Shown here: positions 45,853 to 48,537 of the stretch, piece by piece
Numbering within the stretch: the stretch's first letter is position 1
Layout: every line of letters begins with the position of its first letter
Source of the DNA: Dictyostelium discoideum
Taxonomy: Eukaryota
Direction: 5' to 3'
DNA length: 64,000 bases
Assembly (NCBI GenBank): GCA_000004695.1
Contig: CM000155.2
Location: forward strand, 1,184,001 to 1,248,000
Notes under the pieces: model-generated
Database searches by the model: none
The model's input: only the letters and a program-made list of their open reading frames with translations
Told to the model about the DNA's origin: nothing
Program-made: the position numbers and the translations under genes

Positions 45853-48537
45853 TGATTTTCTTTTTGTTTATTTTGTTTTTCTTGTAATAATCTTTTTTCA
45901 ATTGATTCAATTTCAGAGGGTTTTGTAATCCAATCAGTATTTGAATGCCATCTTATGAAATCTTCAAATACAGAACCAGGATTAAAGTATTTAAATGATT
46001 GCATATCGGATAATAATGAAACTGTTTGCATTTCAATTCTTTTCTCTTGTGATATATTAATATCACTCATTTCATTCAATTGATCTTGTACCATATCATC
46101 AGTCATTGGTCCAAATTCTTGAGTCTCTGGTATTATAATCTCTTTATCATGATATAATAAATATTGACCATTTAGTTTCTTTATATTACCACCACCACTA
46201 TATTTTAATTCAATTTCTTCTCCTTCTTCTTCTTCTTTCTTATTATTATTATTGTTGTTGTTGTTGTCGTCGTCATCTAAACCTTCTAATGGATCTTCAA
46301 AATCATCCCAACCATCTTGTTCTTTTTCATCATCAATTACTGGAATAATATCATCATCATCATCATCCCAACCATCTTGGTTATTATTATTATTATTTTG
46401 TGATTGTTGTTGTTGTTTTTGATTATTATTGTTTTCAAGATTTTCATTCGATTGAAAAATATGATCATATTCTTGTTTTCTCTTTATACAATAATTTATC
46501 ATTTGTAACTTTTGAAATATTAAACAATTATTAACACTAATATGAGAGGATGAAAATGTTCTTGGTATTAAAATTTGATGTTCCCAATGCCATTTAATCT
46601 CTTCAACAAATTCATTCCAAAATAATAAAATACCAACTAAACTTTGAATATTTAAACACATTATTGAAAATGAAAAAAATAATGAATCAATTGGTGATCT
46701 TTTAATTCTAGAATTCTTTATTAAAAAAAAAGAATAAATTAATAAATATTATTATCATTATTATTGTATTTAATTTTATACATACTTTATTTGGTAATGG
46801 TGATTGATTTAATTCTTCTTCAGGAATATTATTAAAATGATAAATATCAGATGGATCTTTAGTTTCAAAGAATAAATCATGTAAAAGCATATCCAATTCC
46901 TTTGGAGTTGGTATTAATGGTGAACTTAATGATGATGCTAATGATTTTGTAAATGTACCCATAGTTTTTAAAATACTAGTATCTTCATATTGTTGTTGTT
47001 GTTGTTGTTGTTGGTGTTGTTGGTGTTGTTGTTGATCTAAATTTTGTTTATAATGTTGTTGTTGATAATTAGTAGTAGTTGTTGTTGTTGTCGTAATTGG
47101 TGAAGACGAATTTGATTTATATAAATTATAATCTGATAAAATTTGTTGAATAGATTGATTAGATGATTTAATAGCTTCGACATAGGATGTGAATACATTG
47201 ATAACACCAATTGATAATTGAAATAAACTATTATGAGGTTTTCTAAATACAACTTTAATGAACCAACTCTTTGGTGTTTGAATTGATTGAAAATCATTCT
47301 CCATATATGAGTACTCTTTATTGGTGGGCACATAACACACCAATGTAATTCATTAATTGGATCCATTGGATATCCCCATTTAAATATATCACCATCACTA
47401 TTACCACCACTACCATCACCACCACCACCACCACCACCACCACCACCACCACCACCATTATTTGAATTTTTAATTCTTTGATTTTCTTCATCATCATTTT
47501 CATCCTCATCACCAATTGATGAATTATTATTATTATTAATTTGTCTATTATTTTTATTATTATTATTTTTATTATTATTTTTTAAATTACTATTATTACT
47601 ACTTTGTTTCCATTGCAAATCATCGAAATTACCTTTAATATAAGTATACTTTGTTGAAGTTGTTGATAATGCTAAGAATTGATCCCAATTTCTATCATCT
47701 AGGTCAACGGAAATCTTTGAATAGAATATACGTAATTGTTTTTCAAATGATTCCGAAATGTTTTGATTCGAAGTTAACGTTGATAAAACTATTGATTCAG
47801 TTGCAAATTTTACAAAGAAATGATCTTCATTATCAATTGATCTACTACTGATTGGAGCATACATATAACCTAAGAAATTCTCATATCTCTTTTCATCGAA
47901 TCCAACAAATGCTGGTAAATAACAATTACAATTATGTAATGCTATTGAAAATGCTGACATAATAGTAGACAAATCCGTAACATTTGGTCCATTATCTCTC
48001 ATTGCTAACATTAAAAAATATTCTTGAATTCCAAACCAATTTAAAAAATTTTCAACTTGATAAATATTATTATTATTATTATTATTACTTGTACTATTGT
48101 TATTATTATTATTATTTTCTTTATTATCATTATTTATAAATTTATATTGAAAATCATTTTTTGCATTCATAAATCCTATTTAAATCAATTAATTCATTAG
48201 TAATAAATATAAAAGAATTAATTTTATTTTTTTATTTTTTTATTTTTTTTTTAAAAAAAAAATAGTTACCATTATATTTTAATTTTGAAATTTTAGAAAT
48301 TTCTTGTTTACTTAATGATAAAGTATTAATTGGTGATATATAAACTAATTGAAAATTTGTATTATTAAATTGAAAAGAATGATCAAATGATGATTTACGA
48401 TTTTCACAACTTGATGAAATAACCTCTTCTAATTTTGCAATTAAATTCTCCCATGATGATGCTTGTGTATAATCTGTAATTTCAAAAAATTCATCTGTTC
48501 CATCATGTTTATGTTTATATTTATTTATCCTAACCAT
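44678..48537 (-). CDS. rab3gap1: Rab3 GTPase-activating protein catalytic subunit (RAB3GAP1 homolog), 5 exons, with an apparent 1-nt frame disruption in exon 2
   Basis: Exons on the minus strand are approximately 48270..48537 (GTAACT), 46786..48175 (GTATGT), 45424..46715 (GTAAGT), 45055..45319 (GTATGT) and 44678..44978. Collinear blocks are DEFFEITDYTQASSWENLIAKLEEV, FSIALHNCNCYLPAFV, DPINELH, LVCYVP...IQTPKSWFIKVVFRK, SPIDSLFFSFSIMCLNIQSL...FWNEF...LIPRT, CLIFQKLQMINYCIKRK, LSDMQSFKYFNPGS...DFIRW and YITRSYSPRPYKS...MYTCISP. The reading frame switches between two overlapping ORF-track ORFs (47037..48170 and 46708..47343) at about 47340. Confidence 0.75.

Follow-up and report, generated by a model that had tools for sequence, protein, structure and literature searches.

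Why does a conserved gene of Dictyostelium discoideum switch reading frame in the middle of an exon? The gene encodes the catalytic subunit of Rab3GAP; mutations in the human orthologue are found in Warburg Micro syndrome. It lies in a stretch of 64,000 nucleotides (the window), which is a chromosome 6-type D. discoideum sequence. The minus strand carries this gene, rab3gap1, as five exons at 48537-44678. Two minus-strand open reading frames, 47037..48170 (377 aa) and 46708..47343 (211 aa), overlap within the gene and lie in different frames. The original prediction described this arrangement correctly, and Rab3GAP1 homology is indeed present in both frames (homologue alignments; human 8VYB). 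The upstream frame is called frame A and the downstream frame is called frame B. The exons are as follows.

48270..48537, minus strand: exon 1, with the ATG at 48537 and the donor G/GTAACT; the splice model gives an open CDS.
46786..48175, minus strand: exon 2, which holds the frame break; coding in frame A at 48175-47304 and in frame B at 47301-46786 (orthologue and strain alignments).
45424..46715, minus strand: exon 3, which contains the match to Pfam PF13890 (Rab3-GTPase_cat), residues 729-827 at 46190-45894, downstream of the break.
45055..45319, minus strand: exon 4.
44678..44977, minus strand: exon 5, with the stop TAA at 44680-44678.

The structure of exon 1 also fits the annotated 1171-aa gene in the near-identical assembly GCA_054883475.1. 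The introns are 70-104 nt long, and none is found at the frame break. The raw spliced CDS is 3515 nt, or 2 mod 3, and the addition of one base gives a stop-free CDS of 1171 codons. The predicted 1-nt disruption is therefore real, and it is located in exon 2. The neighbours of rab3gap1 are the same in the window and in GCA_054883475.1: a UBR-type E3, psmA2, an RBR E3, and ALG11.

By sequence comparison, rab3gap1 is an ordinary Rab3GAP1 orthologue and well conserved. The repaired protein scored 130.7 bits against PF13890 (cut-off 26.1), and it is colinear from the N- to the C-terminus with eight dictyostelid orthologues. The orthologues from D. purpureum (DICPUDRAFT_149549), P. violaceum (CYY_001860), T. 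lacteum (DLAC_06966), H. album (PPL_01387), A. subglobosum, and C. fasciculata (DFA_07168) showed 42-67% identity in their best local alignments. The motif WGYPMDPI.EL....PP..S.H.L.ND runs unbroken across the site in these proteins, and a frame break was seen in none of them. Human RAB3GAP1 (PDB 8VYB chain A, the catalytic subunit of the Rab3GAP complex) matches both sides of the junction and is colinear across it, with ELHLATTWPHLTEGIIVDNDVYS opposite ELHWCVMCPPIKSTHILENDFQS. Unlike the human protein, the Dictyostelium protein has long poly-N/G/Q/D/T inserts, and the window copy has the 1-nt gap.

Several searches by protein sequence returned little for D. discoideum itself. The full-length homologue search found 8 distant dictyostelid proteins; it missed the >90% identical proteins of D. 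discoideum, D. citrinum, and D. firmibasis, probably due to low-complexity saturation. Because these known proteins were missed, the absence of the AX4 protein from this search does not bear on the AX4 annotation. No candidates were obtained with a 101-aa junction peptide as the query. A post-junction peptide search of representatives gave 4 hits with no D. discoideum fragments among them, and close relatives probably share one representative at 50% identity. Exact look-ups of the N-terminal 468-aa, C-terminal 791-aa and 600-aa, repaired 1171-aa (Leu or Met), and AX2-type models, and of the models from the other strains, found no record. A single-exon 208-aa control gene, identical in the window and in GCA_054883475.1 and annotated in the latter, was likewise missed, so these negatives carry no information. 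Look-ups of the 377-aa frame-A ORF and a 198-aa frame-B ORF (ATG at 47304) on read-derived Logan contigs also found no record, nor did that of a 96-aa control exon ORF. Nothing relevant was found in a literature search for Rab3GAP with Dictyostelium and for the neighbouring DDB_G identifiers.

The position of the break needs revision. The frame switch had been placed at a CATTGG site (47345-47340), within a reported interval of 47325-47350. The ORF structure alone cannot locate the break, because neither frame has a stop between 47349 and 47040 (~310 nt); two overlapping ORFs confine a frameshift to the doubly open interval and no further. The features around the junction are as follows.

47350..47352, minus strand: TGA stop that closes frame B upstream.
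47304..47345, minus strand: CAT TGG TGT GTT ATG TGC CCA CCA ATA AAG AGT ACT CAT ATA = H W C V M C P P I K S T H I; still frame A, earlier assigned to frame B.
47299..47306, minus strand: the true lesion, ATA TG GAG here and ATA TTG GAG in all relatives (Ile380-Leu381-Glu382; blastn and MAFFT).
47037..47303, minus strand: out-of-frame tail of 88 non-native codons (WRMIFNQFKH...INKI) and then TAG at 47039-47037; predicted product of 468 aa.

Across the junction, the eight dictyostelid orthologues read DPINELH[LYW]CVMCPP[IM]KSTH[IV]LENDFQS. Their consensus matches frame A (ELHWCVMCPPIKSTHI) as far as the ATA at 47306-47304, and matches frame B only from the GAG at 47301-47299. Exactly one residue (Leu, Ile or Val) is absent between them. 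The orthologues and human RAB3GAP1 thus place the switch at ATA TG GAG (47306-47299), with frame A followed through DPINELHWCVMCPPIKSTHI. The CATTGG site is not the point of change, as the orthologues keep frame A past it and CATTGG itself is identical in all seven comparison assemblies. The frame-B peptide LVCYVPTNKEYSYM, which had been aligned with human LATTWP, is out-of-frame sequence; in the 8VYB alignment of the 47304..47345 stretch, ELHLATTWPHLTEGIIVDND lies opposite ELHWCVMCPPIKSTHILEND. Where strains differ within 47343-47304, the change sits at the third codon position of frame A and is synonymous (TGC/TGT, ACT/ACA, AAG/AAA, and GTT/GTA). The true break is ~40 bases from the earlier placement (47303 instead of 47343), and ~22 nt outside the reported interval. 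Human homology was too weak to place it, and the close orthologues moved the site by 40 nt.

The missing base is one T of the TT pair in the Leu381 codon, at window position 47303. The proposed repair by a single T was right in the base; its placement at CAT TTG GTG was not, and would yield 13 wrong residues. A very short intron or an alternative splice joining the two frames might account for the frame change, which is all that speaks for it. The conserved residues ..KSTHI and ENDFQS.. are only 2 nt apart, without a GT..AG pair, and the real introns of 70-104 nt lie elsewhere. There is no room for an intron here, as was first noted, and this explanation has almost no probability.

Programmed ribosomal frameshifting or transcriptional slippage might also produce a full-length protein from the sequence as written. 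A shift of +1 had been suggested for this; the codon phases demand -1 (or +2) from frame A to frame B. With a -1 shift after the ATA, the next codons would be ATG GAG and the peptide ...THIMENDFQS..., of the same length as in the orthologues. However, at or near 47349-47300, where both frames are open and homology permits a switch, there is neither a slippery heptamer of the form X XXY YYZ nor a run of one base; the junction reads ACT CAT ATA TGG AGA. None of the seven related assemblies, GCA_054883475.1 among them, has the frame change either. Recoding is extremely improbable, and was set aside because every relative has an uninterrupted frame.

The comparison set consisted of a near-identical laboratory-strain assembly (GCA_054883475.1), other D. 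discoideum isolates (GCA_054859355.1, GCA_054859235.1, GCA_054859385.1, and GCA_054859205.1), D. citrinum (GCA_054859325.1), and D. firmibasis (GCA_036169595.1). An extra T in independent sequence had been set beforehand as a refutation test, and this T was found at the level of seven independent assemblies, all of which read CATATATTGGAG at the lesion (blastn and MAFFT). Each of them annotates rab3gap1 as one product of 1142-1200 aa, so that the catalytic region has an uninterrupted CDS in all seven and lacks one in the window as written. Therefore, the deletion is private to the window sequence.

The opposite reading would take the window as correct and the T of the other assemblies as an assembly artefact that they share. 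The comparison assemblies were built from Nanopore and Illumina data, and nine of the ten new genomes came from one pipeline (PMC12745789); some intergenic differences could be systematic. A shared error is implausible for the T, because it restores the frame and a conserved Leu/Ile/Val residue. This residue is shared by D. purpureum, Polysphondylium, Tieghemostelium, Heterostelium, Acytostelium, Cavenderia, and human, all sequenced by other methods. Moreover, the D. firmibasis genome was assembled by a different group. An artefact of this kind is thus highly improbable.

The rest of rab3gap1 is intact and under purifying selection. The dN/dS values against the relatives are 0.06-0.22 downstream of the break and 0.06-0.31 upstream. 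All 791 codons downstream of the break are open, with no premature stop. The window-specific branch carries one substitution only, too few for dN/dS. A unitary pseudogene was considered and rejected, given a single frameshift, dN/dS of 0.06-0.31, and a lesion private to the window sequence.

Taken literally, the sequence would encode 380 native and 88 out-of-frame residues. This product has no Pfam match, and the PF13890 region lies downstream of the break. Dual coding of the 88-codon open tail was rejected as well. An off-frame run of 93 codons occurs elsewhere in the gene, and the tail run is closed in D. citrinum and, after 33 codons, in D. firmibasis.

The closest comparison is with GCA_054883475.1, which shares 99.6-99.74% identity with the window over 42 kb. 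This assembly is probably the AX2-214 of Holland et al. 2025, to judge from its near-identity and accession order. Its rab3gap1 (contig JBTAPE010000034.1) occupies the same locus, with five exons and with all poly-N/G/Q/D tract lengths as in the window. It encodes one product of 1171 aa, which equals the repaired window protein at 1170/1171 residues. Within the 3.86-kb gene only two positions differ, 47303 and 45622: GCA_054883475.1 has ATA TTG GAG and AGA (Arg918), whereas the window has ATA TG GAG and ATA. In the 21 kb around the gene, ~38 of the 55 differing columns are differences in A/T-run length. The second difference within the gene is as follows.

45621..45623, minus strand: ATA (Ile918) in the window and AGA (Arg) in all seven other assemblies; motif ESKGRERK.

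Arg at position 918 is conserved across the dictyostelids in the orthologue alignment, and the window residue is the only one at which the two proteins differ (I918R). These two are the only private coding differences of the window in the 21 kb, and the other genes of the region have none. Compared with all other strains, the window has about 9-10 further private single-base differences in the same 21 kb, and GCA_054883475.1 has ~1. In most of those in the window, an A/T has become a C/G that repeats the C or G beside it. This spectrum is unlike that of spontaneous or nitrosoguanidine (NTG) mutation.

Two sources of the missing T have to be weighed, a mutation in cells and an error in the record. 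The deletion might truly exist in cells, in the AX3/AX4 laboratory lineage alone, so that AX4 would have a null or truncated rab3gap1 and AX2 and the wild strains would be wild type. It is, after all, present in the window sequence itself. The sole other coding difference in the 21 kb is the damaging Arg918Ile, at a conserved position of the same gene. Two damaging changes in one gene resemble relaxed constraint after a knockout, although the numbers are tiny. It also speaks for this reading that the truncated product has no Pfam match and stops ahead of the catalytic domain.

However, AX3 was derived with nitrosoguanidine treatment, for which G:C to A:T changes are expected, and neither difference shows this signature. 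The ~9 further private differences have an error-like spectrum and are too many for sister laboratory strains, and the gene shows no other decay. That one gene of 3.5 kb was hit twice independently after AX2 and AX3 parted would be extremely unlikely, because the mutation rate given by Saxer et al. 2012 (PMC3466296) is 2.9e-11 per site per generation. At this rate, real laboratory-lineage mutations within 21 kb would be vanishingly rare. A real deletion in the AX3/AX4 lineage is thus unlikely, while still deserving consideration. It is slightly more doubtful still that AX4, the 'wild-type' Dictyostelium strain in widest use, and perhaps AX3, naturally lack a functional Rab3GAP catalytic subunit while AX2 has an intact one. 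If true, it would matter to users of AX4 as the wild type in trafficking work, and a hidden genetic difference between AX4 and AX2 might distort comparisons between studies based on the two strains, be they of membrane trafficking, the ER, or autophagy.

An error in the record, by contrast, is probably the cause of the missing T, which would be a base-calling or assembly error of the reference. The first options of the original prediction were a sequencing or assembly indel of one T and a polymorphism private to the strain, with the Rab3GAP1 gene otherwise intact, and these are borne out by the seven assemblies with the T and by the intact remainder of the gene. On this reading, the window carries an ordinary, conserved five-exon rab3gap1 of the D. 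discoideum laboratory-strain lineage. In the record, a T is missing from the Leu381 codon (ATA TTG GAG to ATA TG GAG), so that exon 2 falls into two ORFs that overlap. Most likely the base was lost through base-calling or assembly, probably in the 8x Sanger AX4 reference, and living cells would then read through the gene into a 1171-aa protein.

Published comparisons are consistent with this reading. In Saxer et al. 2012 (PMC3466296), AX4 mutation-accumulation lines showed 1917 candidate differences from the reference, 1916 of which were shared between lines. The shared differences are ascribed there to reference errors, to the ancestor clone differing from the reference, or to mutations during the founding of the lines. 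The study scored substitutions only, with 31-nt reads; its available text lists no sites, and position 47303 is thus not documented there. A discrepancy rate of ~1.7e-4 per bp was computed here from these counts, and it predicts several in 21 kb. The discrepancies described there and those of the window are alike in being isolated single-base differences unexplained by mutation, with a density of the same order. Holland et al. 2025 (PMC12745789) give an AX4 coverage of 8x and an AX4/AX2 identity of 99.5% at another locus, which matches the identity between the window and GCA_054883475.1.

Sequencing indels are commonest in long homopolymers, and the lesion does not lie in one, which speaks against an error. 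A record error is nevertheless the most likely source, because the lesion is private, ~10 more private differences occur in 21 kb, and ~1,900 reference discrepancies have been published. Support of this kind is indirect (private lesion, nearby error-like differences, and published discrepancies), and it makes the error reading a likely one. We infer that the missing base is an artefact and not a real AX4 mutation.

The biological importance is small: a single base is lacking, and in one sequence record only. The practical value lies in curation. A gene model for this locus should be a single gene of 1171 aa, not two genes, a pseudogene, or a recoding site, with the T put back at window position 47303 and probably with AGA instead of ATA at 45623-45621.

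The window has a G+C content of about 22%, with poly-Asn, poly-Gln, and poly-Gly among its coding tracts. The 829-aa ORF at 8584-11073 is identical to DDB_G0292108 of Dictyostelium discoideum AX4. The near-identical assembly GCA_054883475.1 shares 99.6-99.74% identity with the window over 42 kb, and the differing columns are mostly length differences in A/T runs; a 208-aa ORF (33707-34333) is annotated there as the same protein. Judged from sequence, the window is treated as D. discoideum lab-lineage chromosome 6, and it is most probably the AX4 reference. The Rab3GAP catalytic-subunit gene, rab3gap1, contains five exons:

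48537-48270, minus strand, rab3gap1 exon 1
48175-46786, minus strand, rab3gap1 exon 2
46715-45424, minus strand, rab3gap1 exon 3
45319-45055, minus strand, rab3gap1 exon 4
44977-44678, minus strand, rab3gap1 exon 5

All the introns are GT..AG, AT-rich, and 70-104 nt long. The spliced CDS as written is 3515 nt (2 mod 3), and one added base gives a 1171-codon CDS without stops. The protein repaired in this way matches Pfam PF13890 (Rab3-GTPase_cat) at residues 729-827 (130.7 bits versus a cut-off of 26.1), and matches human RAB3GAP1 (PDB 8VYB) on either side of the break. Its best local alignments show 42-67% identity to eight dictyostelid Rab3GAP catalytic subunits. The window gene is an ordinary Rab3GAP1 orthologue.

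The 1-nt frame disruption of the original prediction is real: the minus-strand ORFs 47037..48170 (frame A) and 46708..47343 (frame B) are both present, overlap, and lie in different frames. Frame A is open down to a TAG at 47039-47037; frame B is closed upstream by a TGA at 47352-47350 and opens at 47349. Since both frames are open across this interval, any single insertion there gives one long ORF, and the ORF structure only bounds the break. The orthologues read DPINELH[L/Y]CVMCPP[I/M]KSTH[I/V]LENDFQS..TPKSWFIK across the site. Window frame A reads DPINELHWCVMCPPIKSTHI and then the unrelated WRMIFNQ...; frame B reads the unrelated LVCYVPTNKEYSYM and then ENDFQSIQTPKSWFIK. The orthologue residues thus fit frame A and then frame B, which places the switch at ATA/TG/GAG (47306-47299), where two bases occupy the place of one Leu codon. 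The true site is therefore 47303, which is 40 nt from the place first proposed and 22 nt outside the interval 47325-47350. The earlier match of LVCYVP to human LATTWP was fortuitous; in the HMMER alignment, human ELHLATTWPHLTEGIIVDNDVYS lies opposite ELHWCVMCPPIKSTHILENDFQS. The shift direction had also been given as +1, but with the base missing, the codon phases demand a -1 shift of a ribosome passing from frame A into frame B.

The syntenic locus was compared in seven independent assemblies, and was reached via two neighbouring genes, an RBR-type E3 ligase (protein hits P0011-P0014) and the proteasome subunit psmA2 (P0028).

Assemblies compared, with the handles of their syntenic loci
GCA_054883475.1, L008: D. 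discoideum, near-identical to the window
GCA_054859355.1, L009: D. discoideum
GCA_054859385.1, L002/L010: D. discoideum
GCA_054859205.1, L003/L011: 'D. cf. discoideum'
GCA_054859235.1, L006: Dictyostelium isolate
GCA_054859325.1, L004: D. citrinum
GCA_036169595.1, L005/L007: D. firmibasis

The gene order UBR-type E3, Rab3GAP, psmA2, RBR E3, ALG11 is kept in all seven, and Rab3GAP is annotated in each as one product of 1142-1200 aa. All seven have CATATATTGGAGAAT (ATA TTG GAG, Ile-Leu-Glu), whereas the window has CATATAT-GGAGAAT. A missing T was thus correctly predicted as a single-base omission, but not at CATTGG, which is identical in 7/7 assemblies. Differences among the assemblies at 47343-47304 are few and are third-position synonymous in frame A (TGC/TGT, ACT/ACA, AAG/AAA, TGT/TGC, GTT/GTA), which independently confirms frame A as the coding frame there. 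Judged from these comparisons, the disruption is a one-base omission private to the window record, about 40 nt from the reported place.

Other explanations were also considered. Recoding was rejected: neither an X XXY YYZ heptamer nor a homopolymer lies in the permissible interval, and no relative shares the frame change. An intron bridging the frames was rejected, as the conserved residues on either side are just 2 nt apart. Dual coding by the 88-codon out-of-frame tail was likewise rejected; another part of the gene has an off-frame run of 93 codons, and in D. firmibasis the tail closes after 33. Gene decay was assessed by dN/dS from a codon alignment (961 gap-free codons, window versus other strains or species). 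The values are 0.06-0.31 upstream and 0.06-0.22 downstream of the lesion, and the 791 downstream codons contain zero stops, which together rule out a decaying gene. R918I is the only substitution on the window-specific branch. Taken literally, the window sequence would give a null allele: the 468-aa product (380 native and 88 out-of-frame residues) is without the PF13890 region and matches nothing in Pfam.

Apart from that of D. firmibasis, which another group built, the compared assemblies come from Holland et al. 2025 (PMC12745789), where the genomes of AX2-214 and nine wild isolates were determined by Nanopore plus Illumina. The paper puts AX4/AX2 identity at another locus at 99.5% and gives AX4 coverage as 8x. 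We infer that GCA_054883475.1 is AX2-214, since it is near-identical to the window and its accession (JBTAPE) is the first of the series. Its Rab3GAP gene is annotated at 1171 aa, the exact repaired length, and every low-complexity tract is equal in length to that of the window. Only two positions differ in the 3.86-kb gene: 47303, where the window lacks the T, and 45622. Codon 45621-45623 (minus strand; plus-strand base 45622) is ATA (Ile918) in the window and AGA (Arg) in 7/7 other assemblies. This is the sole substitution between the two sequences in the whole gene. Residue 918 sits in the conserved motif ESKGRERK, in which the Gly-Arg pair is kept throughout the dictyostelids. For Ile918 there are two readings, another error in the record or another damaging change private to the window.

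Across the 21 kb surrounding rab3gap1, about nine further single-base differences set the window apart from all other strains, and about one is private to GCA_054883475.1. Single-base differences are found at:

33463, 33466, 33574, 42745, 43387, 48644, 49257: window-private, alternative base in every other alignable strain
5084, 5838, 12817, 18633, 18640: further differences, from comparison with locus L001 alone

The private differences are mostly A/T to C/G and repeat the C or G that lies next to an A/T run (GT8 versus GGT7, AAC versus ACC), and the other 21 kb compared has the same pattern. One example is ATGGTTTTTTT versus ATGTTTTTTTT. Such changes resemble base-calling error in the source record. 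Spontaneous mutation is biased from GC to AT, and nitrosoguanidine mutagenesis gives G:C to A:T transitions; the observed spectrum is unlike either, which favours record error.

Comparing AX4 mutation-accumulation lines with the reference, Saxer et al. 2012 (PMC3466296) counted 1917 candidate differences, of which 1916 were common to the lines. These shared differences were ascribed to reference errors, ancestor clone/reference differences, or mutations during line start-up. By our arithmetic, these counts amount to about 1.7e-4 discrepancies per bp, so several are expected in 21 kb and about 0.6 in a 3.5-kb CDS. Real divergence between sister lab strains is expected to be orders of magnitude lower, which again favours record error. 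The missing T might instead be a real, AX3/AX4-private null allele. Both private coding changes of the region fall in rab3gap1 and both are damaging; the lesion sits at a TT pair, not in a long homopolymer; and the comparison assemblies are all Nanopore plus Illumina, nine by one pipeline. However, for a single gene to take two real, independent hits is extremely improbable at the reported mutation rate (2.9e-11 per site per generation; PMC3466296), and a real null allele is considered unlikely. An error in the sequence record is the probable explanation, and the explanations other than these two are, even combined, highly improbable. For curation, rab3gap1 should be modelled as a single 1171-aa gene with the T restored at 47303. 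If the deletion were real, AX4 would be a rab3gap1 null relative to AX2, which is the only reading of some interest.

Two other changes in rab3gap1, at 45501-45503 and 46455-46460 (minus strand), are common to the window and GCA_054883475.1, and are absent from L002, L003, and D. citrinum in the aligned proteins. They are KQKPLFD to KQKQLFD (Gln for an orthologue-conserved Pro) and DHS-QS to DHIFQS. Since both lab-lineage sequences carry them, they are probably real lab-lineage variants. The poly-N/Q/D/T tracts of the gene differ greatly, in both length and composition, from one D. discoideum isolate or species to another; those of the window and GCA_054883475.1 are identical. The (GGT)13 at 47408-47446 (minus strand) encodes Gly13 in the window versus GDDGGDGSGSGSG in another isolate, and D. 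citrinum has a region of >100 residues, mostly Asn, near its counterpart.

Across window positions 38744-55538, the order UBR-type E3-Rab3GAP-psmA2-RBR E3-ALG11-short-chain dehydrogenase holds in D. discoideum and as far out as D. firmibasis (L002-L011), and the psmA2 proteins of these two species are 100% identical. The D. purpureum model DICPUDRAFT_149549 (P0001) lacks the conserved GFMNAKNDF...WFGIQEYFLLL segment (columns 107-175 of alignment A1), which all other dictyostelids contain. This is probably a gene-model error that skipped the start of exon 2.
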